Assembly: GCA_030650425.1 (NCBI GenBank)
Contig: JAUSED010000005.1
Coordinates: 142,932 to 206,931 of the forward strand
Reading direction: 5' to 3'
Source of the DNA: Candidatus Omnitrophota bacterium
GTDB lineage: Bacteria > Omnitrophota > Gorgyraeia > Gygaellales > Profunditerraquicolaceae
DNA length: 64,000 nt
Each line of letters opens with the position of its first letter. The stretch's first letter is position 1. A program made the position numbers and the translations under genes. The notes under the pieces are model-generated. The model worked only from the letters and a program-made list of their open reading frames with translations, ran no database searches and was not told the DNA's origin. Below, piece after piece: positions 3,001-21,000 of this stretch.

Positions 3001-6000
3001 GTTTTTACGCGATTTGTATGGAAGAATCGGCATGAATTTGGCAGGGCTCTTTTATGAAAAAGGCCTGCCCACAGGCACTGTTGAAGTGAGGCGGGAATTT
3101 GACGGTCGCGGTAATGAAATTTCCCATAGATTTGATATAGACGATGGAGCATACCCTCAGCTTTCTGTTGGGAAAATTGTTTCATTAGAAAAAGTTTTTC
3201 AGAAGGCCAAATTCTTACATTTTGGTTTAACTGCATTATTTCCTGCAACCCCTGTTGCAAAGGCGGTAAAAAAGGCTGTTGAATATGCAGAGCAATATTC
3301 TCTTCTGGTTTATTTTGACCCTAATATCAGGATTTCTTCTTGGGTTAAGATGTTCGGTACTCATGAACTGGCGGCTAAGAAAATAATCGATACAGTCAAG
3401 GATACCCTCAGGTATGCGCATATTATTAAGATAAGCGATGAAGAGTTGTTTTTCTTGAACGGAACAGAAAATAACCATAGCGGCATAGAAGAAGAGATTT
3501 TTAAGTTTGTGAGTGAATACAAGGAGTTAAAGTGGGTTCTATTGCTTGTTACCTGCGGCGAAAGGGGAAGCGAGTATGTTTTTCGCGGCAGTGGCACTGA
3601 CAACAAGAGAGAAATTGCCGCGGGCCATATTGAGGTGTATAAAAAATGGCCTTTTATAAGCGCTGTAGGCGCCGGAGATTCATTCAATGCCGCGGTAATT
3701 TCACGTTTATATCAGCTGCTTAAAGAGAAAGAGCTAAGCCGTATGACAGAAAAAGAATTGATGGATATCTTGAACTTTGCTTCTAAGGTTGCGGCTAAGG
3801 TTGTATCACAGGAAGGCGCTGTGCTTGAAAGAGAATGGAGGGGTAGGAAAACATCCAGCCCTCTTGACCTAAACGAGCTTATAAATGATCAGCTCAATGA
3901 TGTTCTGTTTAAGGCGCAAACGTTAGCAGCATCCGGAGACCATATAACTGCCCTATGGTTTTTAATGAATACGGCTAATCTCAGCATTTTAATTAACAGC
4001 TATAAGGGCAATCCGAAAAATATCGAGAGAATCAAAACCGCCCTTGAATTAGCAAAAAACTTGAAAAAAGCCCAAGAAGAAGCCAATGGGATTCTAAGCA
4101 GAGGCGCTCAGGATGCAATCAATAAAAGAATCGCCTTGAATAGAGAGCGCGTAGAAAAACTTCTGATTCCGGTTACGGATATCAAAGACATCCGTCAATA
4201 TCTACCGTATTTCGGGACATATGCCGTGGCGGGCATGCGTATCGAGAAAGTAGTGCATGTTTACGCGCCTTCTGTTATTGACGATATCAGCGCGGTAATT
4301 TTTAGATACAGGCGGCCGAAAGTCGACAAGAATATTCTTCACTACGCGATTTTTGTATTGGATAAGCCTAAAGCTCCAAGCCACCAGTTAATCGCGCGAG
4401 CTTTTGTGGAGAAGAATTATCAATACCACAACGGAGGCTCTGTTAGCACAACTACTTTTGATAAAAAAAGGAATAGGCAGAACAAAATAGAGGTTAAGTC
4501 GAGCATGGAAAAAGGAATTGCGTTGTTTGTCTATGCAATGTTTCGCTATGGAGGAGAGGTATGGTTATCAGATATTTCCCGGTCTGATTCAGCTACGCGT
4601 ATGTATCAACGTATTAAAGAACGCATCGAGGAAGATTTATACCCGGGGTTATTGATTGAGTATTTTCTTTCTCCAAGAAGGTGGCGTATAAGTATTAATT
4701 CGAATAGCGAATGGCTGCCTCCTATAATTATTACTGAGATTCCTTATTCCCCAAATGATTTAGCCAGCAGCCCAGTGGTTCAAAAAAATATAGAGATAGC
4801 AGAAAGCGCCGCCTCGCCGGCGTCCCCAATTTCTTTTGGGAATAATTCTATAAAAGTAGAAGTTAATGATTTGATTAGAGCTATAGAAACCGCTCTTGGT
4901 TTTGAGGGGGAAATTGAATTTGACGCAGTTAAGGCCGCCATTAAAAGCGCAGATAGGCTTTCTGAGTTAGGCGTATTAGCTACAGAAGCTTTGCCCGTGT
5001 TAATTAAAGCCGCGAAAGAACAGCGTTTTGACGACGATGGTGTATTTTGCCGCGACCATTTTATCGCAGCCTTAATACGGATATCTCCTGTTGAGGAAAG
5101 AGTAGAGAATTGTTTGGCAGAAATTATTTTAAGTGACCCCAATGAATATTCAAGAAGCGCAGCTGCAAGGCAGTTAGTAGAAGGGCTACAAATTCCTTTT
5201 AATAGTTTGGCGAGATCTGCTTTAGAGAAAGGCGTTCAGGAGAAAAATTGGCGGATTTCTAACCCATGCAAAAAAGCTTTAGGCTTGCGTTCCAGTTCGC
5301 CTTTCAACTCAGGCCGTGACAAGCTTAATCCGTTTGTGATACTAACAAAAAGTAAGTTACGGGAGTTATCTATAACTAACCCTATGGCTTGGCATTACTT
5401 GCAAGCTAAGCGTATTGAGGACGGAATAGATGTTTATGTGAAGAATATTAGCAAAGCACCCGAATTTGCCAAAAGGTTTAATGAAATATTCAAGGAGGTT
5501 GAAGCAAAAAAAGATGAATTGCAGAAGCTTGGGTTAAGAGAACAAATAAGCGAGATTTATGAAATAATGTTAAGGGCTTTTCCTAGGTTAGTATATGAAA
5601 AAGGCTATTGTGTGTTTACCGCGGCTGGAATGGCAAGATCCCTGAGAAATATTGGGCACAAGGATATCGCAATATACAGAATAATAGCATTAACTCAATC
5701 GTTTGTAATTAAAGAAGCTGGAGAAGAAAGCGAGTATATTTATATCGACCATAGGGCAGAGCAATTTATTATAAGAGAACCTATAATAGAATCTATAATG
5801 GAACCTAGAGGTATGAAAGAGTTGTTGTGTTTAAGTTTACCTAGTATAGATAAAATTTCCAGTTCGCCGCTGAAAGAAATAGTTGGAGCGACGGTGGTGA
5901 CGCGAGGCGCCGCCTCGCCGGTTTTGGGAAAAATAGAACTATTTCTAATTTTAAATAGATTTGATTTGAATTTCGCGAATACTACTAAAATGCTTTATAT

Positions 6001-9000
6001 TACGGGTTACAAGCGTGGATTTGTTCTTGAAGGCAGTGGCAGCGATAAGCGAGTCTACAACCGCGGCATTATATGTTCTTTTAAAACGAGCAGCAATTCT
6101 TACAATGGAGCTAGTTATATTCAGGACAGCAAATATTTTTATGAAATTAAGAATATTTTCTTCTTGGGCAGGAGTCAGTGTAGGATACACCAAGAGTTCG
6201 TATTCGGTGAGGACAGAGATACTGGCTTTAATTCTTTTATTCTCGAGCTCCTCAATAAAAGCGGTAACGCTTTTATCTCCTCGCAGGTGATCAATAATAA
6301 TATTGGTGTCGATAAGGTATCGCATAGATTAAGAGCTAATTCTTTTAAGAACACCGGTTTTCCATTCCCTGCGGATTTTATTTTCAAAGGCAATTCCTTT
6401 GGGGGCTTTACTCAAGATACCCGAGCTTCTCCTGATGAGATTAATAGTAGTAGAAATAGCGGCTTTTTTAAAAGAAAGTGGTATAGTTATCATCCACTTG
6501 ATATCTTCGATCTTTTCCTCAAGGGTTTCCAGCAATTCCATAGTTTTATTATCCATCAAATACCTCCTGCTTTAGTAACCGAGATAAATATATCACATAG
6601 GCATAAAGGAGTCAATATTTATCTAGGAAGCTGTTTCCGTCCACCTGACGCCTCCGCCGCCTCACCGGTGGCGAGTGTAGTCAGTACGCAATATGACAGT
6701 GTAGTATGGGCGGAGAAGGTGGAAGAGGTATCCGGAAATCCGGTAGAGCGCTTAGCGCAGATTATCCAGATTGCGGCGCAGAATGATATACAAGCTATAA
6801 GAACCGGGCTTATCGGGCTGCTTAATCTATTAAGAAAACACAACCGGCTCTATCGCTATCAAAGCGCAAGGCTGCTTTCCCAATTAGCTAAAATAGAGTT
6901 TTATGAGAAAATACTGCGCTCTATCGGCGGAGGAAAACTGATTGGCTTAATTCATTTGATCCCCCTTGAAGAAAGATTTGCATTTGAGGTCCCCGATTTT
7001 ATCGTTCTTCCTCCCGAGCTCAGCAAAGAAGCGGAAGAACGGATTTTTGATTTACTGGAGGAAGGCGTTTATATCTTAAGGAGCAGTTCATTCTTTGAAG
7101 ATACAGAAGGTTTTCCGATACGCGGCGCGTATGAGTCGGTATTTTTTGTCAAAAACCCCCAACAAAATGAATATCGCAAGGGATATGATTTAGAAGTTTT
7201 TAGGAACGTGAGGGTAAAAGTAAACAGAAGCTTTAGAGACTTTAAATACGCTGAAGATAGGCTATGCTTATTGTTAGAGCGGGTTCCGGGCCATACGGTG
7301 ACACTTAAGATTGGTTATGCTAATCGCAGCTGCTATTTTCCGTCGTTTTCAGGTGTTACTAAATATAATCCCTATAAACTAAGCCACATAGTATCGGAAA
7401 TAAATCCCGGTTTGAATACCCCCACGGTTAAAGGAGGATATCACCGGTTCGTCGATAAGGATACTGAAAGCGGAGAAATAAAGGTTCCAGAAGTTTCCCG
7501 GACTTTGCGGCTTTATGGGACTGGGGATGTAATAGATATTTCACGTAACAAGTTAATCAGCGCAGACATAGTGAATAACACCTTGTCATTATGGGTAGAT
7601 GATTCAGATAGTTATAAAGATACATCTTTGATTAAAGGCGTCCATGAAAAATTAAGCGCTATTATCTTGAGCTTAAAAGAAGATTCAGGCTATAGGGAAT
7701 TAGAGTGGTCGTTTGATTCCGGAAAGCTTTATGTCTATCAGAATACGCCAAGTAAAATATGCCGTTCTTTGTCAAGAATAAAGGTAGATATACCAGTTGT
7801 CCCTGAAGAGCGCCTGATTGTCTCTTGCGCCGGTGTCTTTGGCCACGGCGAATTCACCGGCCCCTTAGTTTGGGTTAAAGACAGAGATGAAATTATGTTG
7901 AAACGAGAGGAATGCAAGCGCATAGCCAGAGAGTTTCCCCGAGGGTATATTTTAATAGGCAGCCGTTATTTGTTTATGGATCCAGACATGGAATACGCAA
8001 CCAGCCAATATTTTGATTCAGCTTTAGGCAGACTCAAAGGCTGGGTAGACACAAGCGGCTTGCCGCTTTCCATTTGCGCGCATTACGCGGAGGGATTAGT
8101 TGACAAGAATATTATAGTTATTTCTCAGTCAGCTATCGATTACACTAAACTGGAGCGCTTCTGTGATCAGCAATTAAAAACCGGTATTTTCGATGATTAT
8201 TATGAGATACGTTATAGCGAGGCTTTATTCCGCATCGCCGCCAATGCTCTGCAAGATAGGGGCATACTGTATCTGGCCAGCTCTCCTGGCCCCGCCGCTT
8301 CGCCGCTTAACAACGATGATCAATTTAATGCCAACATGCCAAAATCAAGAGAAGATGGCGAATTAAAGGGGTATTTCGTCCTGGCGGTACAAAACACCAG
8401 AAATGTAGACACTTTACGTAACTCATCGACTATCAGCGAGTTATGTAACAAATACGATAAGGACAATATTACACAAACCAATACCGCCGCCTCGCCGGTT
8501 TCGGAAAATAGGAAGGGACAATTCTATCGTAACTGTTCATCGGCCATGGAGATAGACAGAAACGGTCTGAAGGATTTCGACGGGTTAAAAGTTATAGATA
8601 ATGAGGAAGGGATTTTTCTGGTTTCGAATCGTCTTGGTGTCAGAATCAAAGCTCAACGAAAGTCAATCGAATTTGAATTTATTTCCTCTCCGCTGTTGTC
8701 AACCGATGTACGCCTGCGAAGTGTACAATGGGGTAGCTCTCCGGTAGAAAATAGTAATTTTGAAAAAGCATATTTTGGTATTTTAAGAGAAATTTTCGGC
8801 AGTGAAAATAAAAAAATATGTTTCCATAGCACTGTAATCTTGGCTTTATATCTTGAAAGAAGCAGGCATAAAATAAAGATACTACCTTCCAAAGAAATTC
8901 CCCCTGTTCCTTGTTTCAGTGAGACATACAGCGAGATAAAAATAGGAGTTTTTGTAAATAAAATAACGGGTAGTTATTCTTTACAGCATTGGTTAGAATT

Positions 9001-12000
9001 TACCAGTTTAGGGAGAAGATTTTATTTAGATGCGGTCTATAATTCATTATGGGGCAATGGCCGAGACAGGATTATTTACGAAGAGATATATCCATGCTTG
9101 TTAGAAAATAAATACAGTCTTTACCCAATCCACGATATGGAAAAATTTTTACATAGCGGTGATTCTCAAATAAGAGAGCTAATGGTTGCAAAAGGAGAGG
9201 CTATATTGCGAGATGAGTGGAGGGTGTTTGGAACAGGTGAGATAGCGCTTCTAGATTTTCTGCCTCGATTATCGAACGGAGTAAATATCGCAAAAGCTGT
9301 TAGAAAGCTTATCGATGCATCTGTATCTTTGGAAGAGAATGCCAATGGTTTTATTCTAAATAAGGAAACTTACAATGCCTCGCCGCTGGCTTCTTGTAAC
9401 TTGGAAAAAATAGAGACGGTTAACTTTTTGAGTTATAGGCGAAAGATGTCTTTACGGCAGAAAGTGCTAAATGAGAATCGAGCTGCTTCACCCATGGGTA
9501 TTCCTAATAAGGTCATAACGAAAGAGCGGTTTGATGACCTCCTTAAAATTAAAAATTATGCTAATCCTCACGGTGAATATAAGAAGGTCTGGTATCCAGC
9601 TTCTGCTTCTGATGTGGGATTAGCCCTGTATGTTACTGATGGAGACAAATTTATCCTTTCAAATTTTGAGCATTTTGGAAATATGGATGATTTCAAAAAG
9701 TTTCCTGATGATGAGAAAGAAAAGCATTATTTCTTAAGGCGCACACGTAGCTGGCTTGAAGAAGTTCACTATGAAAACAGAATAAGCGCGCAGATTTTCT
9801 CTGAGTTAGAAGCGTTGGGCATAGATTACAATGATGTAGAAAAGTCAAAGATTAATGATGCCACTTTTAAATTGGTATTTAATTGGCGGCATCCTTTAGG
9901 CAATAGAACTAAGGAAAGAGTTATCGAATATAGAAATATACCCGTTCAAAGGCCGCCGTATTATCCGGAAGAGAAAGTAGATATCATAATAATTAAAGCA
10001 TTAAACGGATTCAATTTAGATCCAGAGGGCCTGTTTTTTATTTTAAATCCAGATGGGCTTATAATCAGCGATTTCTGTTTCAGCGATGTTTGGTATGAAA
10101 GAGTAAAAAATAGTCCTATTGCATTGAAGCTTAACAATAAATTTGGGTATAGTGCTAGGCATATCTGGTGGGCATTAGGAGAGGCGATTGAACTAGCAAG
10201 AGGCGAGGATGTATTTTTGTACAAGAACACCCCCGCCGCCTCGCCGGTTTCGGATGAAATAGGAGGACAGCCCCGTAGTAAGAGCAATTTTGACAATGAA
10301 TTTGCAGGGGCTGACCCTAAAGCTTTTTCAGGAGTAGTTATTTATGCGGGAGGATTATTTTCTTTTATAAGAGAGGACGGCGAAAAGGTCCACCGCAATA
10401 ATAATAAAAGCAATAATATAAAGAAGTGTCCAGTTATCCATAATGGGTTATTTCTTTCCCTTGATTACCCGGAGGAATATAACAAGGGCCAAGAGCCCCG
10501 CCAGGATATAGAAAGCCAGAAAGTTCATCGTTATTCTTTTCCCAATCCTACAAGAAATGTAAGCCATGGGATTTTACCCGAAGCAGTCGGGACAAATACG
10601 CCTACCACTAAGGACCCAAGCAATATCTTTGCTCCGTCCAGAAAGAAGTCAGATAGAGTGTCTCATTCTTGGCCAGATAACATACACCCCTATTCTATTG
10701 TCTTCAGGAATTTTGTCAAGAGTTTCCCCTTACGGAAATCCGCCGCCTCGCCGGTGGAAAATCGATATACGGATACATGGCTCAATGGATTACCTCTATT
10801 GCAGATCTTGGGAATCTTTGGAGGGATTAAGCGGCAACCGTTCTACTTCGATATGAAGGGCCGTATCGTACAGGCATACGGATGGGATGGCTTGCTAGAT
10901 GCTGTCTTGACGGCTAGGGATTCAGGGGGCGATACGTCCAGATACATAGAGAATAATGACTATATCAAATATATTGACTATTTAATCAGAGAAAGCCGCT
11001 GGGATACAAGCGCCGCTGATAATTTTAGCAAGTTACTGTTGAGTATAAAGGGCGAAGACGCATTCATAACTTTTAGTCAGGAAGTTCTGTCGGGGCTTTT
11101 GACGATAGTGGAAAAACATATTGAGGCCTATGTTGAAAGTCGTCATCTTTTCCGCGCACCGCAGGAGACCGTGGTCCAGCGGCCGGAATCTTATCGTACG
11201 GTGAAAAATATTTATAGAACGGAAACAGTTTCCTTCACAGAATGGAAACAGCTTTCATCTCTTTTGATGGCGGTATCAGAATCTAATCGTATTGGCGCGC
11301 TTATCCTATTGCTCGGGAACCAATGGGCGGCTAATTCCGCCTCGCCGGTGACGCTTGATGAAAGAAGAAACGTATTATTCCTTATCCCTATGGAGATGAT
11401 ACGCAGTGCTGGTAATAATAAGGAGGTTTCCGTTAAGTTGGGCTGGCCGTATGGACTTAAGGGCTTCCAGCAATACTCTATGTACTTTATCCATGGTTTC
11501 GGGAGTAATCCGCAAGATAATAATACCAGTATGATTTCCCAGTGGATAGAGCGCAATATTGGAAAAGTCCCGGTCTCGCGTAAGCAAAACAGCCTTGCGG
11601 GATTTGGCGATTGCTATAACCCTGCCATTAACCGCTTCAGCTTGTTTCAGTTCTTTGAGAGTAACGCAGTCAAAGCCTGCTTTGCGCAGCAGGTTTTCGG
11701 TTTCTTTCCAGACACAATGGTCAAGCAGGAACATAAGATTACAGGTTTAATGGGAATGTTGAAGTTCCTCCGCGAAATGAATTTCTTCTTCATCGAGGAA
11801 TTGATTGGCAAAGGCTATGCAGGCAAATATGTCTTCTACTTTCAGATCAGGATAGAATTTGTCAGAACAGATATCTTTAGGGGAATATCCGCTAGCCAAA
11901 AGCTCCATAACCATAGAAACAGCTATACGGGTGCCCTTAATATGGGGTTTACCATGGAGTACGTGTGGATCAATAGAAATTCTTTCCAGCAACCTTTTGT

Positions 12001-15000
12001 TCATCGATTAATTCTCCTGTTAGTAGTATTTAACATCTTTGGTAAGGAAAGTCAAGGTGAATTTATAATTAAACGCGAAGATCCGGAAGGCCCGGGGGAT
12101 CTACAGGATCTGGATCCGGGGGCATATGACTTAATTCTAAATAAGTATCGTGTCTCCGGAATTGCCACCTCTTGGGGATTAAGAGATATCCGAAGCGCAG
12201 ACATTATACAAGATATCTATTATGCATTAAAAATAATAGAAGATTTAGGCCGTAGATTAGGGTTATCAGGCAAGATGATTGATGGGGCACATAAGGTTTT
12301 TGCGCAAGTAATCTTTGCAGCCAGCCCGTTGGCCGCCGCCTCGCCGTCCTCGAGCCGTGTCTTAAGAGATGGCTCGAGGACCCCGAGCGAAGTGAGGGGG
12401 CAGGTGGATGAAAATCAGGCTAGCTCGCCGGTTAGAGAAGAGGAAGCTGCTGTCAGACTAGAAATTGCCAAAAAGCTTTGTCATAGCTTAAATAACGCTG
12501 TCAGTGGTTTTTATGCTTGGTTAACTTATTTGGAGCGGAAAACCCCTCATTTTGATAGAGGAAAAGGAAATACCCTTCTTGGGAAGATTAACGATTACAA
12601 TGAGCTGGTAAGCGAATCGGAGGAATTACTACAAAATCCGGATAAATTAAAGGAAACAGTTAATAAATTGGATACCCTAGTAAACGAAATTATAGAAATA
12701 TTGCCCAAGTTACGTAACTTTTATGATAACCAGGAGTTAACAGGAAGCATTGCATTAATTGGAGAAATAATTTCGGATGAATTACCAGAAAAACCGGTAA
12801 ATTTAAGCGAGGTTTTGCCCTGGATATTTCGCAGCGGGACGTTTTATCATGATTTTATGATAATAGATTACAAAAACTGCCTTGGGAAAGACGCATTTGT
12901 TTTTGTCAGCAAAGATAAACTATGGATTGTATTCGATAATTTATTGATGAATTCCATACAGGCTTTCCAGAAGTTTGATGTTATAAATAAAGAAGATAGA
13001 AGGGTTACGGTGGAGTTGGGTGAAGAAAGAGATTATTATACGGTTGTTTATTCCGATAACGGCCCGGGGATACCCGAAGATTTATTAAGCAACATCTTTG
13101 ATCCCTACGTAACAACTAAGGTCGGAGAACCCATATCGGGGTTGGGGCTTGCCATATGTAAGGAGATAGTCGCTAAGGCAAACGGCAGCATTACTGTAAA
13201 AAGCAAACAAGGGGAGGGCGCTACTTTTACTGTTTATCTGCCTAAAGAAACAAATGTTTTCGGAAAAGAAGGCGCCGCCTCGCCGCTGGCTGGTGAAGAA
13301 AATATAGGCCGGGAATTACAAGAGGCATTTGATAAAGCCGCATTGGATTTATTGTATTGGTTTTGCGGCATTAAATATCTTCCTTATGATTGGAAAATTC
13401 GTGCTTATATAAGGCCTTTAAGGCGAGGGGATTTACAGTTTTTGCTTGAAGAAAACTTCCCTACATTACTTTTTGATTTAAGGATAAATTGGTTTGAAGA
13501 AGTGATTGGCTATCGTCTTTACCCGGAAAGCGCAGGAATAAGAGAAAAAGAGATTATGCGGGGATTAAGAAAAGAGGTTTTTGATTGGTTCTTAAATAAT
13601 AGGCCGGCTGTTTTGGAAGAAGAGTTTGAAGGAATAAAAATAAAAGAATTTATTGAAGCGGCTATGACATCGACAGAGCAGCATTTACAATACTTAGGCC
13701 AAATGCTTGAGTTTATCAAAGGAGGCAAGCGGCAATCATTCGCTCCTTTTATGCAAAAAACGTTTAAAGAATTTCTTGAGAGAAGGATTAAAATTCTTAG
13801 ATGCCTGCGTCATATTGATCCAGCGTTTGTAATACACAAACTGCCTTTGTATGAGGAAAGAGTTAAAGAGATAGAAAATGAAGATATTGAGAGCGAATTA
13901 GAAGAGGCAAGAAAAGCGGGCAAAGAGGTTAAGGTTATAATAAAAGAAATCGCCAGGTATGAAGATACAGGCAGGCCATCTAGTCTTAGGGTTGAATATG
14001 AAGGCGAGATTGGCTTTGTGCGCATAAGAAACAGCGGTTTTAGCTCCTGGGCGCTTTCTCAACACCCTAAAGCTATTATTGGGGAAGAGGTTTACGCAAG
14101 GGTAATTGCTGTTAGGCCGCTTGAGTTTGGATTAATCAAAGAAAAAATCGATATTCCAAGAGTAGATACGAGGATTGTTTACAGGACAGACGCGGCTGGA
14201 ACAGGAGATAATAGGTTTAAGGAAGCCTTTAATAAGGCCGCGGAACAAAAAGCCAAAAAAGCTAAAAAAGGCCCATCCTCGGGTTCTCCGCTTGAGGAAG
14301 AATTCAATTTTTTGCGGCTACCGGTTAAACAAATAACAAATAAATGGCTGGAGTATATAAGAACAAGTTTTAGTGAAGACGAAGCCGCAAGTTCAAAGAT
14401 GAAGGGCGCGCTTAATGATTTAATTCAGCAGCTCGAAGCTTTAGGCGCAGAGCCTTTTGATAAGACAACAGAAGTAAGTATAGGTGATTTATATATAGAT
14501 ACCCTCTCCGGCACTATTACAAAAATAACAGATGTGAGAATAGGGCTTACCTGCGAGACGGATAGAATATACCCTATGCGCAAAGAGAAAAGAGAGCTGG
14601 CTATGACGGGTGGTAAGTTCTTATTAAGAAGAAGCGGTGTTTCTAGAGAGCAGGCAGAGTTAGCCTATCGGTCTCAAAGAGCAGAGAAAATTATCAAGGA
14701 TATCGAATTCGCTGTAGCAGTTAGTAACCACAAAATGGCTGTCGATTTTATAGAGGAATTAAGAAGGGATTATTCTGATATTGTTAGCTGTGCTAAATTA
14801 TCTGAACTGGATAGGAAAGTCGGCACTGTTCATCCAGACACACCTACTCCCGCTGCGCACAAGGCTTCTTCGTCAATTAAGAACAGCCTTACACTTTACA
14901 CATTAAACATTGCACAAACCATTCCCGTCGCCTCGCCGGTAGCGAAAATAAGATTGCTGGGAGATTATCCTTTAGCTAAAAATTCTTCCGGCAGCATTGT

Positions 15001-18000
15001 TTCGGTTAATCTTGAGGCAATTTTTAAGAATTTGGTATCGCGGGTAATCAGAATCGTGCCTGGTGAGGATAAAGCCAATGAAAGTAATATGGTATCAAAT
15101 GGGTCTAATGGATATTCTTCTTGTAATTTATTAGCCCGCAACAACTCGATTTCATCGGGGATTAGCACTTCAAGGAGCTCAGTTAGTTTATTGGCATCTT
15201 TGTTAATCTCTTTGGCAGGGTATTCTTTCTTGCGGCGGAGTAGAAACCTTATTTCTAATAGCGTAGTTAAAGAAATACAGCCTTTGATTTCCTTTGTTTC
15301 GACGCGGTTGATAATTTCAAAAGGGGCCTTCCAGAGATTCTTATTAGTAGCGGTTTCTGTTTCTTTGAGCAGCCAGTTAGCAATGACATCCGTATCAAGC
15401 AATACCGTTTTAATCTCTTTCATTGGGTTGGCAATAAATTTATTTTACCTTACCGCAGAGACTAAGGCGTTGGCCTTTGATAAAACCAGTGGAGGTTTTT
15501 CCTGCAGGAATAACCCCCTTGTACTTACCAAGCAATTCTCCAGCGGTGTTCGTCTTGCTAATTTTGGAAGTTTGCGCTTCCGTTCCCAGTACCCTCAGAG
15601 CTTCTCTCAGTGTAGTCATATCTCATCACCTCTAACAAAGGTTAACATAATCTCAAGACGCCGTCAAGATAATTCCGCCGCCGCCTCGCCGGTTTCAAAA
15701 GAAGCAGAAACAACTAAAACATTACTTTCCTTCCCAATTGCCGACTTGGATAAAGTTTTAAAGCTGGGCATAAAGTTGTTTGATTTTGGGTGTGGGCCTA
15801 TTGCCGGATGCCGCGGAGAATGGGGTTCTACTATTGTAAAACATTATCCCTATATAAACTATTATGGTATAGATGCGCAATTTTGTCTTGAGCGGCAATT
15901 GCGCCTGCCTTTTAGAAGACTCTTAAGTCTATTGGGAATACGCTTGGCAAGAGAGAGGATGAAATTTGAAATACAGTCCTATTTTGAACCGTTGCCGCAA
16001 GAATGGGGTAAGGCCGACATTATCATCTTAAATTCTCCTGAAATCACAGAGGATTATTTGGCGCGTATTAATAAGGGAGAGGTGGCGAAGGCGTTCTTTA
16101 AAAATCTCAAAGAAGGGGGAATAGGTTTGATTCTTTTTGAATCACATCTTTATTCATCGATAAATTCACTAATTACATATATATCTAGAGAGGCTGTGGC
16201 AGGCGGCCGAATGTATAAATCTTTCTCTATGGAATTTGGCGAAGAGAACATTAACCAAACAAATATCCCTAAGAATTACTATCCTGAGAAATTGACTGCC
16301 TATAGAAATTGGCAATTTGCCCAGAGAAATAACCGTCCTGATTTTGAGATTAGTTTTATCCAGGTTAGGAAATCGCTAGTAAATGGTAACGCTCCCCAAA
16401 GGGACACCTCTGCTACTCAAGGCGCCGCCTGCACTGAGCGAGCGCAAGCGAGTCGAGGCGCCTCGCCGCTAGTCTTGGAAGATAAGGTAAATGAAGAGTT
16501 AATAATATTATACGTGTTAAAAGATGAAGTATCGTCGCTTAGCGATAAACAAAAATATAACTTCGTTAAAAACAGGCTTTCCCTTGAGAAGAGAATAAGT
16601 TTATCTATCCCCGCCGCCTCGCCGGTGCAAGACAAAAACAGAATGTTATATGGAGGAAAACAGGCAAATTTATTAGGTCAGAAATATCTTGAAGGTATTT
16701 CCTTAGGCGAAGGCGTTACCATTGAAGTTATGGCTGCCGAAGAAGAGAATATTTTTACAACCGATGATTTTATAGATTTTCTTGTATTTAACAACGAATT
16801 AGTCAGTCAGATAGAGCATGTTTTGAAAGAATCCGGCAAGATTATGGAAGAAGAAATTCAAGGTTTGTTGTCGCAATTCGAGTTTCCTAAATCGCTCGAA
16901 GAGAAAGCGAATATTATCCAAAGCCATTTTGCTAAAGATGTTCTGCTTCTTGCCCGCGGTTCAGGGCAGAAAGAGGGCTCCAAAGAAGCAAGCCGCTCAG
17001 GAGTTTCTTTAAGTAAAAAAATTGACACTGAAACCTCTCTTTTTGAAGTCCTCCAGGAAATCTATCTACACGAACTAAAACAGGTATATCTTAAAGAGAG
17101 GCAGTCAATTTTGAAAAATCTTCTGGCGGTGACAGTTGTGCCGTACATAGATTTTGATTGCGGCATCATTGGCTCTTATTCCAAGAAAGATAACTCAACG
17201 ATTATTGATGTTGTCGTTGGCTCTTTAGAGACGGCCGTAGACCCCGCGAAACTGGGTTTAACCACTAACGAACGCCAGGTGCACGCCACAGCCCTGACTA
17301 TCAAGGTTCAAGATGGCAGGATTTTTGTTGCTAAAGAATATAACCTTAGGCCGCAGGAGATTATATATAAAGGTAAACACTATTTTCGCGAAAAGGCGAC
17401 CAAAGAGATATGGGAAGCAATGACAGATGTAATAGATGCAGAAAACGTGAAATGTATTCGCTGCCCGTTAAATAAAGACGAAATTTTAACCATTGATAAG
17501 CTAACGCGCCTGGCGGCTGAAGAATCCGATGCAGATATTTTATGGGAAATAGGCAAGATCGGCCGTATCCACGAACCTGCTTATGAGCTTTATATCCTTC
17601 AGGCAGATCCTTTAGTGCCTGTCGGATTTTATCAGCCTATCCCTGATAATTTAGAAAACATTATGGCGCGAAGTTATATTTCCCACGGTAATATACGCCT
17701 TGAGCGGGCAGTTGTGATGCTGGTAGAGGCGGGAGCTAAGGCAAGTTTTGTGGAAGCGGCCGCAGAAATCTTGGCTGAGGCAAGGATTCCTTTTATTAAA
17801 GTTCAGCGTCAGGCAGCCTGCCTTGATTTAAGCTTAGCGCACCGGGCAGCCGTAGAATGGGCAAATGTTTTGATTGATCCTGCGGCGCCATCCAAGTGGC
17901 CGCATACGCAGGTAAATTTGAGGGATTTTATTCGTGAGCATAATCATTCATTGTTTTTTGCCGATGGCAGGGTTTCCCAATTGGCTTTTGCCGGCGGCAG

Positions 18001-21000
18001 GGCTTTTCAGGAGCCGCTTCGGCGCTTAAACTATTGGCGGTTCGGAGGTGGCGTCTATCTAAGCGAAGAGTTGGTCGGTTTTATAGCTAATGACAGAGAA
18101 GCGATTATGTTCGGCCCAGCGCAGGATAAGAAGGTAACGGATTGTTATAGCAGAAACGGCCTTAGCCATTATTTTGGCAGCCATATTACCTTTTTAAGCT
18201 ATTTATTTGATGACGAGCTTAGAAATGGCTTTCTTTCTTTTGAGCCTACGGACAAAGAGCAAATGGATATAGTTTTTGGATACGCGATGGATTATTTGCT
18301 GCAAAGGTGCAAGAAAAGAGAGCCTCTTATGCCGGCATTGGAAGAATTACTTTCTAAGATACGGTTTGAGGAAAAGCAGAGGCTTAAAGAGGCAGGCGGT
18401 TATTATTCCTCCTGGGATAAAGAAAAAATACAAACCCTCATTGCAGAACATCCGCAGGCAGAAGCGCAATTATCCGCGTTAAAAGAAGAGATCAATTGGC
18501 TTAGGCGTCTTATTGCCCTTCCATTTTATCCAAATTACAGCCAGAGCCATATTACCAGAGCAGTGTTAAAGATTTTTGATGGCACCCGCGGTTTTGAGTG
18601 GAGATTTGGCGAAGAAATACAAGAAGCACATCCAAGGCCGCAAGGGCCGTTGAGGATTTTAATTGTTGATAGAACCCTTATAACGAGTCTCTACCTTAAG
18701 TCTTTTATTGAGGCGAATTTTAGTAAAGCAACAGTTGAAGCAATATATAATTGTTATGACGCGGCTGAAAAAATACCGTTTTTTGTACCGGATATTATCA
18801 TCTTAGATGGTAGGACCTCACACGATGATTATGGGCACGAATTAATGAGGAAGTATAACCAATTATCAAACGCGCCGCGGCTGATTTTAATTAGCGCCTG
18901 GGGTTTAGGCGACCTCTACCATGATACACAAGAATTGCGGAACGCTTATGCAAAAATACAGGTCTTAGGTTTTTACTCCCGCAGTGAAAACGAAGAAAAA
19001 ATTATCCCCTGGTTTAAACAAGTAGAAGATGAGATCAAACCAGCAAAAGAAGAAAGCCAAACCGCTGAAAAGAAGAAAGTAACTATATCTAAGGTGCTTT
19101 TTATTCATTATTCTAGCGAATTATTGAGAAATATTAGACTATATACTAAAAAGGCGCCTTTTGAAATCCTGACAGCTGATACAGAGGTAATGGCGGTTGG
19201 CATGATTAAAAAGCATCGTCCTGATATATTAGTCTATGACGTTAATTTTACACTTGAATCCCAAGCGCCTATAATCGGAGAATATATTAGGGTAAAAGGA
19301 GAAAGCGCTTATGTGATTCCTTGGTCAGCTGCGGAGTATTCCTTGAATGAAATCCGTCAGAGGCCAGGATGGAAAAAAATATGCGCACAGATAAAATTCC
19401 TTGATCCTGTGGTGATAAATTCAGATGCCGCGTTTTCGCGCTCCGGAGAAGGCGTAGATTATGTTATGGATGAAATCTTTAGGATAGTTTCAGGCCTGAC
19501 CGGGATTTCATCCAGCCCCTTAGCCAGCCCCGCCGCCTCGCCGGTCAGAGAAGAGGAAGCTGCTGTCAGATTAGAAATTGCCAAAAAGCTTTGTCATAGT
19601 TTAAATAACGCCGCCAGTGGTTTTTATGCTTGGTTAACTTATTTGGAGCGGAAAACCCCTCATTTTGATAGAGGAAAAGGAGATACCCTTCTTGGGAAGA
19701 TTAACGATTACAATGAGCTGGTAAGCGAATCGGAGGAATTACTACAAAATCCGGATAAATTAAAAGAAACAGTTAATAAATTGGATACCCTAGTAAACGA
19801 AATTAAAGAAATATTGCCCAAGCTACGTAACTTTTATGATAGTCAGGAGTTACTAGGGAGCATTGTATTAATTGGAGAAATAATTTCGGATGAATTACCA
19901 GAAAAACCGGTAAATTTAAGCGAGGTTTTGCCTTGGATATTTCGCAGCGGGACCTACTATCATGATTTTATGAAAATAGATTACAAAAACTGCCTTGGGA
20001 AAGACGCATTTGTTTTTGTCAGCAAAGATAAACTCTGGATTGTATTCGATAATTTATTGATGAATTCCATACAGGCTTTCCGAAAGTTTCATACTCTAAA
20101 GAAGGAAGATAGAAGGGTTACGGTGGAGCTGGGTGAAGAGAGAGATTATTATACGGTTGTTTATTCCGATAACGGCCCGGGGATACCCGAAGATTTATTA
20201 AGCAATATCTTTGATCCCTACGTAACAACTAAGGTCGGCGAACCCATATCGGGGTTGGGGCTTGCCATATGTAAGGAGATAGTCGTTAAGGCAAACGGCA
20301 GCATTACTGTAAAAAGCAAACAAGGGGAGGGCGCTACTTTTACTGTTTATCTGCCTAAAGAAACAAATGTTTTCGGAAAAGAAGGCGCCGCCTCGCCGCT
20401 GGCTGGCGAAGAAAATATAGGCCGGGAATTACAAGAGGCATTTGATAAAGCCGCGGAACAAAAAGCCAAAAAACCTAAAAAAGGCCCATCCTCGGGTTCT
20501 CCTATAGAAGATATCACCGCCTCCCCAAGAGGCGGAGCGGATAAATCCCCAAGAATTCTTGATCCTGACTATAAAAAATCTTCGCGTTTTATTGAAATCG
20601 ACCCGGAATATTTTCTGCCTGACACTCAATCCGGATTTTGGCTAATCGGGAAAAATGCTAAAGACATTTTTACAACTTGCACCGATATTGTATTCTTAAC
20701 TAAAGAAGAAAGAATATTCCTCGCTCATCTTCAGATTAATCCCAAACACCTTGAGAGCACAAACGAAAGGCAAAGCAAAGAACTGTTAGAGCGGCTGGTA
20801 GAGGACTGGAAAACCTATGGAGATAAGGACGAAAAAGGCCAAGGAGTCAGCACTTTTAATCCTCGAGAAATATTTAACGCGACAACTAAAGCGCTGTTAC
20901 TGAATAAATATCCCGCAAGAGAACCTTTTACTAATTGTTTAAGAGATTTTTTATTAGAGAAGGGGCTGGGTAAAGATAATATAAAAATAGATTTTGCAGC

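Follow-up and report, generated by a model that had tools for sequence, protein, structure and literature searches.

A putative toxin–antitoxin module lying antisense inside a giant open reading frame of Candidatus Omnitrophota, with a coding sequence that leaves the host frame open

The window analysed here, a 64-kb stretch of DNA (64,000 nt, positions 142,932 to 206,931 of contig JAUSED010000005.1, assigned to Candidatus Omnitrophota), carries on its plus strand a giant open reading frame (ORF) of 28,305 nt, a gene that most likely comes from an Omnitrophota bacterium. A cassette of two minus-strand genes is located inside this ORF: a small gene encoding 59 aa (15440–15619) and a gene encoding a PIN domain protein of 152 aa (14965–15423). 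This cassette is probably a toxin–antitoxin (TA)-like module that has its own promoter and is specialised for an antisense life inside giant genes, the reading frame of which is kept open across it. The pair consists of real genes, no stop interrupts the host frame over its whole length and the cassette recurs in unrelated giant ORFs. The PIN protein would be toxic and its 59-aa partner would neutralise it.

Both genes start with ATG and are separated by a 16-nt gap, the small gene being the first one; this organisation is that of a type II TA operon. The PIN gene is VapC-like and would encode the toxin. It matches two Pfam families well above their cut-offs, PF01850 (E 1.2e-12, 48.9 bits for a cut-off of 23.6) and PF13470 (E 2.5e-12, 48.1 bits for a cut-off of 27). 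Its 156 homologues, each of about 150 aa and up to 84% identical, are named in their sources as VapC-family or PIN proteins of Omnitrophota, Nitrospirota and Thermodesulfovibrionia. All the acidic residues that are invariant in the family (D10, D12, E57, D107, D110 and D129 in an alignment of 22 sequences) are kept. PADLOC gave a marginal match for this protein (E 0.004) and none for the five other proteins submitted to it; exact look-ups of the PIN protein and of a transporter gene located downstream in the window had no match, and a profile search of the PIN alignment against PDB sequences yielded nothing usable. The coding-potential score is best for the minus strand at the cassette (about 14.9–15.5 kb).

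The start codon of the small gene is preceded, 6 nt upstream, by a Shine–Dalgarno (SD) sequence AGGTGA (15631–15626, minus strand). A putative sigma-70-type promoter (15639–15667, minus strand) lies further upstream and comprises a -35 box TTGACG (15667–15662), a 17-nt spacer and a -10 box TAACCT (15644–15639) with TGT directly before it. It is the conservation of these elements that points to a promoter: the six embedded cassettes that were aligned all have TTGAC(G/C/T) and a TAAACT-like hexamer preceded by TGT with the same 17-nt spacing, and five of the six share the SD sequence GAGGTGA, the sixth (contig L121) having GGAGGTG instead. The whole unit is flanked by two copies of a 16-nt direct repeat, J14 on the left (CCGTCGCCTCGCCGGT, 14925–14940, plus strand), which encodes V-A-S-P-V in the giant frame, and J15 on the right (CCGCCGCCTCGCCGGT, 15678–15693, plus strand), which encodes A-A-S-P-V. 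These copies are 737 nt apart, i.e. 753 nt or 251 codons from start to start. The two ORFs, the SD sequence and the fit of the unit between J14 and J15 had already been proposed in a sequence-only reading of the window, and all are present as it described them.

A homologous small ORF is found directly upstream of the PIN gene in all 13 related loci, embedded or free-living, for which upstream DNA was examined, with the consensus MTTLKEAL..ELLGKYKGIIP..K.S..FIK..R..LYGK. An exhaustive phmmer search (1.84 billion representatives) retrieved 15 matches of the partner at E ≤ 1e-3, 11 of which are 56–69 aa long; the same query gave no match in a word-indexed database. Among six embedded loci (the window and contigs L119 to L123), the numbers of substitutions per site at codon positions 1, 2 and 3 are 0.28, 0.28 and 0.50 for the partner gene and 0.29, 0.16 and 0.49 for the PIN gene, the latter decreasing from position 3 to position 1 and then to position 2. 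As the third position of the partner codons faces the first position of the giant-frame codons, the most variable position of the host codons is here position 1. This peak of variation at the third position of the partner itself shows that the protein under selection in this region is that of the minus strand. Synteny and substitution pattern indicate that the 59-aa ORF is a real and conserved partner gene; its putative antitoxin role is suggested by its position and its synteny with the PIN gene.

The host ORF (65–28369, plus strand) encodes 9,434 aa and is devoid of stops, the other five frames of the same stretch carrying 347–924 of them. Pfam domains found in the giant frame are PfkB, HATPase_c (twice), Response_reg and a methyltransferase (Methyltransf_25); neither SecA_DEAD nor C39 was found in it (E ≤ 0.01, ten chunks covering the ORF). 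The codon-usage score is best for the giant frame in almost every 300-nt interval, the exceptions being three antisense cassettes, and on this evidence the giant frame is genuinely coding. The encoded protein is modular and contains 41 copies of a linker motif [AS]-S-P-[VL], where 0.65 would be expected; the ordinary genes downstream have a single copy in 11,000 aa. As many as 26 different 12-mers, with serine codons of both the AGY and the TCN type, spell this motif, and such a diversity of unrelated spellings indicates that it is constrained as a peptide. Cleavage, linkage of domains or ribosome pausing may be its role. One rare GC-rich spelling, GCC-TCG-CCG, is used at 20 of the 41 motifs (probability of 0.019 given A-S-P under host codon usage), far more often than codon usage would predict. 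At the DNA level, the repeat CCGCCGCCTCGCCGGT, which encodes A-A-S-P-V, accounts for at least 22 of the motifs; its copies are spread between 2.7 and 27.1 kb, all on the plus strand and all in one frame, with spacings of 192–2919 nt that are each a multiple of three. The junctions between units are direct repeats of 16–22 nt in the coding frame, without any paired inverted arm, and the homology between related cassettes stops at them. An identical 19-nt junction is found in frame (AASPVS) within a stop-free 8-kb stretch (L050) of the Ca. Omnitrophota chromosome CP070797.1; among the matches listed in the scan of genome contigs with this 19-mer, it is the only informative one, the others being chance matches in GC-rich genomes. 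This shared junction makes an Omnitrophota origin of the window likely, as do the embedded PIN homologue of an Omnitrophota contig (L121, see below) and the giant ORFs known from this phylum.

Over the 753 nt of the cassette, the giant frame is read through for 251 codons (14930–15682, plus strand) with no stop, giving a Ser/Leu-rich translation of low complexity; the other five frames contain 6–24 stops. Shuffled versions of these 753 nt have a mean of 14.3 stops, and none of 20,000 was stop-free. The two genes leave the host frame open in two different ways. The codons of the 59-aa ORF are in register with those of the giant frame, where stops would come from its TTA, CTA and TCA codons. None of its 11 Leu/Ser codons (7 Leu, 4 Ser) is one of these (P = 0.017 under the codon usage of the downstream genes, in which TTA alone accounts for 34% of Leu codons). 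The PIN gene is offset by one base, its third positions facing host third positions, and in this phase only X-Tyr, X-His and X-Gln contexts can give stops in the host frame. It uses TTA nine times, CTA four times and TCA three times. The PIN gene thus acts as an internal control, indicating that the avoidance of these codons is phase-specific; foreign codon usage was considered as its cause and rejected, since the PIN gene of the same cassette uses these codons freely.

Only three Tyr, His or Gln residues are present in the PIN protein, versus 5–13 (mostly 7–11) in the 101 more distant homologues listed, and at otherwise conserved columns R-Y is replaced by R-F, S-Y by E-Y and I-H by L-L. When these 101 homologues are back-translated, they contain 2.8 stops on average, and their median probability of having none is 1.4% (0.014). 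Codon choice was also considered as the cause of the antisense openness of the PIN gene and was rejected, 82–89% of its synonymous versions being already stop-free. The PIN gene keeps the host frame open through its amino-acid composition, not through its codon choice. The sequence-only reading had recognised the frame offset between the PIN gene and the plus-strand ORF and had proposed to look for a biased codon choice at positions that would create plus-strand stops; the offset applies to the PIN gene only, not to the codon-aligned 59-aa ORF. Such a bias is found in the 59-aa gene and in the four genes of the two other antisense pairs, all devoid of TTA, CTA and TCA, but not in the PIN gene itself, where amino-acid composition takes its place.

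Comparison with related loci associates this recoding with the embedded state. In eight other contigs (L119 to L123 and L128 to L130), the strand opposite to the pair is open across it and the PIN protein is 60–84% identical to that of the window; L128 and L129 encode the same PIN protein, leaving seven distinct versions among the eight. Two of these contigs, including L121, belong to metagenome-assembled genomes of Omnitrophota. In L119, L121, L122, L123, L128, L129 and L130, no stop interrupts the opposite strand from one end of the contig to the other; the length of the open frame is, for example, 11.3 kb (3,766 aa) in L123, 7.7 kb in L121 and 5.1 kb in L128. The open frame of L120 (781–1014) starts close to the cassette and next to a thiolase-like gene, so that a cassette can also occupy the beginning of an ORF of this type. 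All nine embedded copies, that of the window included, have the same relative phase, no host-frame stop in the PIN gene and no TTA, CTA or TCA codon in the partner gene. Four free-living relatives from ordinary neighbourhoods (L124, L125, L126 and L131; 52–56% identity), one of which (L131) adjoins mreBCD-PBP2-rodA, have 3–6 stops in the PIN gene and 4–8 TTA, CTA or TCA codons in the partner gene. A fifth one, L127 (52% identity), is truncated and was left out of the stop scoring. The recoding exists, and it is exclusive to the embedded copies. As stop codons matter only to ribosomes, this suggests that ribosomes translate the cassette in the plus-strand frame and that there is selection against premature termination within it.

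Ribosomes would cross the cassette in the plus-strand frame, stop avoidance being defined by translation, even if the 28-kb ORF were an array of separate genes or cassettes whose openness prevents Rho-dependent termination on a long transcript or is a by-product of cassette joining. This view is unlikely, although gene callers do split these loci at the PIN gene and although the conservation of the junction DNA far beyond what the peptide needs (GCC-TCG-CCG) hints at a role as nucleic acid. The [AS]SP[VL] motif is also spelled with unrelated codons, pointing to a constraint at the peptide level. In addition, bona fide domains are found in the same frame on both sides of the cassettes (in L123, a Radical_SAM domain lies downstream of the cassette in the same frame), and published proteomics supports the translation of one Omnitrophota giant ORF.

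An all-against-all blastp comparison of the giant-frame translations showed that the loci share only the cassette (about 215–260 aa), with two exceptions: L119 and L123 share about 85 aa further, and L121 and L123 about 35 aa further. The flanks were compared only where they are long enough, and they are unrelated in all such cases. As judged from these translations, the same cassette is found in at least five unrelated giant-ORF contexts. It is bounded by AASPV/L junctions (direct repeats) in the window, L120 and L122 and by hydrophobic segments resembling transmembrane (TM) helices in L119, L121 and L123; in L121 and L123, these segments recur in the same ORF.

The helix-like junction of L123 has the sequence AAKAALVVIAVLAVIF[MI]PH[IV]LAML and is found at aa 237–272, 515–543 and 1047–1075 of the giant frame, and that of L121 (VIIATAVMSLVLYALS) is found at aa 815–840 and 1247–1272. 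The giant ORFs of L121 and L123 do not contain the AASPV motif, and their TA cassette lies between copies of the helix-like repeat. Such linker repeats may account for many of the 'transmembrane helices' that have been reported in giant proteins. In the window, some short conserved blocks are repeated next to junctions (5861–5922 and 28097–28158; 8632–8695 and 27997–28060). Their sequences, ...SSP[LV]-x-E-IVGATVV-...-SSPV and GVRIKAQ...FEF[IV]SSPL, may correspond to a more complex junction element or to a small repeated fold.

Two other antisense pairs are present in the giant ORF of the window, and the sequence-only reading was right in calling the cassette studied here the third one. At only three sites (about 6.1–6.7, 11.5–12.1 and 14.9–15.5 kb) is the coding score of the minus strand as good as that of the giant frame or better, and each of them comprises a small ORF followed by a PIN-type gene; the minus strand scores best at the second site, as it does at the third, whereas the signal at 6.1–6.7 kb is weaker and falls under the flag threshold of the coding scan. 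The first pair (5951–6559, minus strand) consists of a PIN gene (5951–6325; Pfam PIN, E 6e-15) and a 76-aa ORF upstream of it (6329–6559). The second one (11375–12004, minus strand) consists of a PIN-like DUF5615 gene (11375–11734; Pfam, E 1.7e-19) and a DUF433 gene (11747–12004; E 4.2e-22). All four genes are codon-aligned with the giant frame and devoid of TTA, CTA and TCA codons, the probabilities of having none being 0.0018 and 0.0096 for the first pair and <0.0002 and 0.009 for the second one. The first and third pairs have no detectable sequence similarity. In L128 (4233–4875), a second pair, encoding a small protein of 75 aa and a PIN protein of 140 aa, is located directly behind the first one, antisense in the same stop-free giant frame, indicating that TA modules can be stacked.

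The repeat spacing is 747 nt for the first cassette (5907 to 6654), 999 nt for the second one (11334 to 12333) and 753 nt for the third one. The near-identity of the first and third lengths, noticed in the sequence-only reading, is thus confirmed, but the size or shape constraint that had been deduced from it is not supported, in view of the 999 nt of the second cassette and of the range of repeat spacings (192–2919 nt). The similarity between 747 and 753 nt arises because promoter, small ORF and PIN gene add up to this length; the real constraints on a cassette are a length that is a multiple of three and the absence of stops in the host frame. The capture process that had also been proposed has to be divided in two. 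Movement of the cassette is plausible, given the different contexts in which it is found. In contrast, a dedicated, integron-like process inserting cassettes of constrained size or shape between junction repeats is quite unlikely. It would fit with the direct repeats bounding the cassette in the window, L120 and L122, with the finding of the same cassette in different arrays and with the lengths of the first and third cassettes. However, the 36 kb downstream (20 genes scanned; the region upstream of the ORF lies outside the window) contain no integrase or recombinase gene, the 16-nt junction does not have the inverted-repeat structure of an attC site, and the cassettes of L119, L121 and L123 are flanked by a TM-helix-like linker instead of AASPV: the cassette does not depend on one particular site.

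The plus-strand translation of the cassette had no match among 5.8 billion proteins, and its product looks like filler in which only the avoidance of stops appears to be selected. Hydrophobic stretches such as LLASLLISLAGYSFL and FLLVAVSVSLSSQLAM in this translation, together with the many predicted TM helices reported for giant Omnitrophota proteins, might suggest true dual coding, the translated cassette being a selected part of the giant protein, for example membrane-spanning linkers. This is very improbable: between loci, the plus-strand frame is far less conserved (38–64% identity) than the PIN protein (60–84%), the variability of host codon position 1 in the partner region is the opposite of a coding signature, and Ser/Leu-rich hydrophobic sequence is the generic antisense translation of a Lys/Glu-rich gene. 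The idea that the minus-strand frames are shadow ORFs, open by chance opposite to a true giant-protein gene and with a spurious similarity to PIN proteins, is effectively refuted: such ORFs are common on long ORFs (e.g. 2440–2874 and 4780–5142 in the window, with no family matches), but the pair has a Pfam PIN match over the gathering score, full-length homologues up to 84% identical including free-living ones in ordinary neighbourhoods, a conserved partner, promoter and SD sequence, substitutions that follow the minus-strand codons, a coding score favouring the minus strand and a plus-strand translation that matches no protein. The opposite-strand ORFs found elsewhere in L050, L121 and L123 have no family matches and do resemble shadow ORFs.

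Around the cassette, the histidine-kinase (HATPase_c) cassette of the giant ORF is duplicated (12424–13290 and 19537–20400), its copies, which lie 7,113 nt apart, being 97% identical over 300 nt and matching in other blocks as well. They enclose the TA cassette under study, which recombination between them would delete, and the end of the DUF433/DUF5615 cassette lies just before the first copy. From 28.4 kb onward, the window is ordinary chromosome, with genes for PilZ, a sugar ABC transporter, ROK, LacI, RNR, GidA, GS-III and GOGAT. Apart from the three TA pairs, all convincing genes of the 64 kb are on the plus strand, and every other minus-strand ORF of 120 aa or more either overlaps a plus-strand gene or lacks a family match.

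The following model can be proposed for the module. It would be a sub-lineage of a widespread family of small-ORF and PIN gene pairs that has adapted to giant ORFs. The codon-aligned partner gene would have adapted by avoiding TTA, CTA and TCA, whose complements are stops, and the offset PIN gene by shedding most of its Tyr, His and Gln residues (Y to F, H to L, S-Y to E-Y). A ribosome on the giant mRNA would read about 251 filler codons and then continue into the downstream domains. Convergent transcription of the module and the giant gene could couple the two. The module would persist as a selfish addiction element, by protecting a repeat-rich giant gene from deletion, or both; its location inside the 7.1-kb interval between the 97%-identical histidine-kinase cassettes would be an example of such protection. 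The cassette would move by recombination at the repeated junction elements.

Several observations weigh against this model of an antisense TA module adapted to giant genes. The score of the PIN protein against the NCBIfam model TIGR00305 ('putative TA toxin, PIN family') is 24.9 bits, under the curated cut-off of 29.15. The profile search of both ORFs that the sequence-only reading had put forward as a check confirmed PF01850 and PF13470 for the PIN protein, and the partner had no Pfam or NCBIfam match (E ≤ 1) and nothing below E 0.06 in a profile search of PDB. No DNA-binding or antitoxin domain (ribbon-helix-helix, AbrB, helix-turn-helix or Phd/YefM) could be recognised in the partner with Pfam, NCBIfam or PDB, and its AlphaFold model, which consists of two helices, is weak (a predicted local distance difference test score, pLDDT, of 66.8, too low for a fold search). 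A generic promoter scan did not call the proposed promoter, the promoter/terminator scan giving no more matches than shuffled sequences. Three of the embedded contigs are short (1.9 kb for L119, 1.7 kb for L120 and 1.2 kb for L122); for L119 and L122, 'giant ORF' means that the opposite strand is open contig-wide, and in L120 the open frame begins just 78 codons upstream of the cassette. Neither an empty site nor a target duplication was found. It is the avoidance of stops that suggests plus-strand translation across the cassette, and an addiction or stabilising role could be proposed from a comparison with chromosomal TA loci and with the TA cassettes of integrons.

A broader reading has about even chances of being right. 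According to it, some giant genes of Omnitrophota would be modular arrays that exchange units at repeated junctions, of AASPV type in some lineages and TM-helix-like in others, and a specialised guild of TA modules, represented in the window's giant gene by at least three unrelated PIN-type families, would colonise these arrays in reverse orientation and in an antisense stop-free form. If so, a selfish or stabilising element could inhabit a gene in a manner not known before, by read-through of its reverse complement instead of splicing. The published catalogues of giant proteins would then be fragmented at such sites, and some of the unannotated or 'transmembrane' segments would be antisense filler.

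The findings on the cassette itself have several implications. They provide evidence at the sequence level that selection keeps Omnitrophota giant ORFs open, even over 750 nt of foreign antisense DNA, which bears on whether giant ORFs of 20–440 kb are translated as single units. They point to an undescribed way for a gene pair to inhabit another gene, with recoding at synonymous sites and at conserved amino-acid positions. The lengths and counts of giant proteins are probably underestimated because gene callers split the ORFs at the cassettes, and the hydrophobic Ser/Leu-rich stretches of antisense filler may be misread as TM helices, for example by topology predictors, or as 'dark' protein. 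The findings also provide a testable model for the stabilisation of repeat-rich giant genes.

Giant ORFs of Omnitrophota, whose products are described as 'multi-enzyme' or Archaeovorin-type giant proteins, are well documented, and for one such ORF matching peptides are known (West-Roberts et al. 2023, bioRxiv 10.1101/2023.11.21.568195; Seymour et al. 2023, PMC10066038; Nielsen & Lui 2026, bioRxiv 10.64898/2026.06.07.730766). The host ORF resembles them in exceeding 20 kb, in mixing HATPase_c, response-regulator, methyltransferase and sugar-kinase domains within a mostly unannotated protein, and in having the same junction sequence as an Omnitrophota chromosome. It differs from the full-length giant genes, for which SecA_DEAD and/or N-terminal C39 peptidase domains have been reported, as neither domain was detected in it. 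These three papers do not mention antisense genes, internal TA modules or the [AS]SP[VL] junction motif, and a literature search for antisense toxin–antitoxin modules in Omnitrophota found no description of them. The arrangement has probably gone unnoticed so far because gene callers split the loci at the PIN gene.

Among known systems, the module is most readily compared with type II TA modules of the VapBC type. It shares with them a small gene in first position, a short gap (16 nt), a PIN protein with a complete acidic set, a putative promoter and an SD sequence of its own, and it has free-living relatives in ordinary chromosomal neighbourhoods. It differs from them by a partner that matches no known antitoxin family or fold and by its location, antisense inside the ORF of another gene and recoded to keep that ORF open.

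A second comparison is with the TA cassettes of sedentary chromosomal integrons, such as the Vibrio superintegron. These cassettes have their own promoters and are thought to stabilise the array against deletion; integron cassettes are separated by attC sites, which are imperfect inverted repeats of about 55–140 nt. In both cases, self-promoted TA modules are interspersed in a long array whose units are separated by a repeated sequence, and protection against recombination between repeats is plausible, the module being located here between duplicates that are 97% identical. Unlike in integrons, no integrase gene was found (20 downstream genes scanned) and there is no attC-like site; furthermore, the array is here a single ORF, and the TA module must preserve the frame of the opposite strand.

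Finally, some selfish elements insert in genes without destroying them, such as inteins, self-splicing introns and the in-frame palindromic elements of Rickettsia. As in these cases, the module would be a self-interested foreign element inside a coding sequence, and the host product can still be made. In contrast to them, the insertion would be tolerated here by reading through the reverse complement of two genes, made possible by a recoding that avoids stops.

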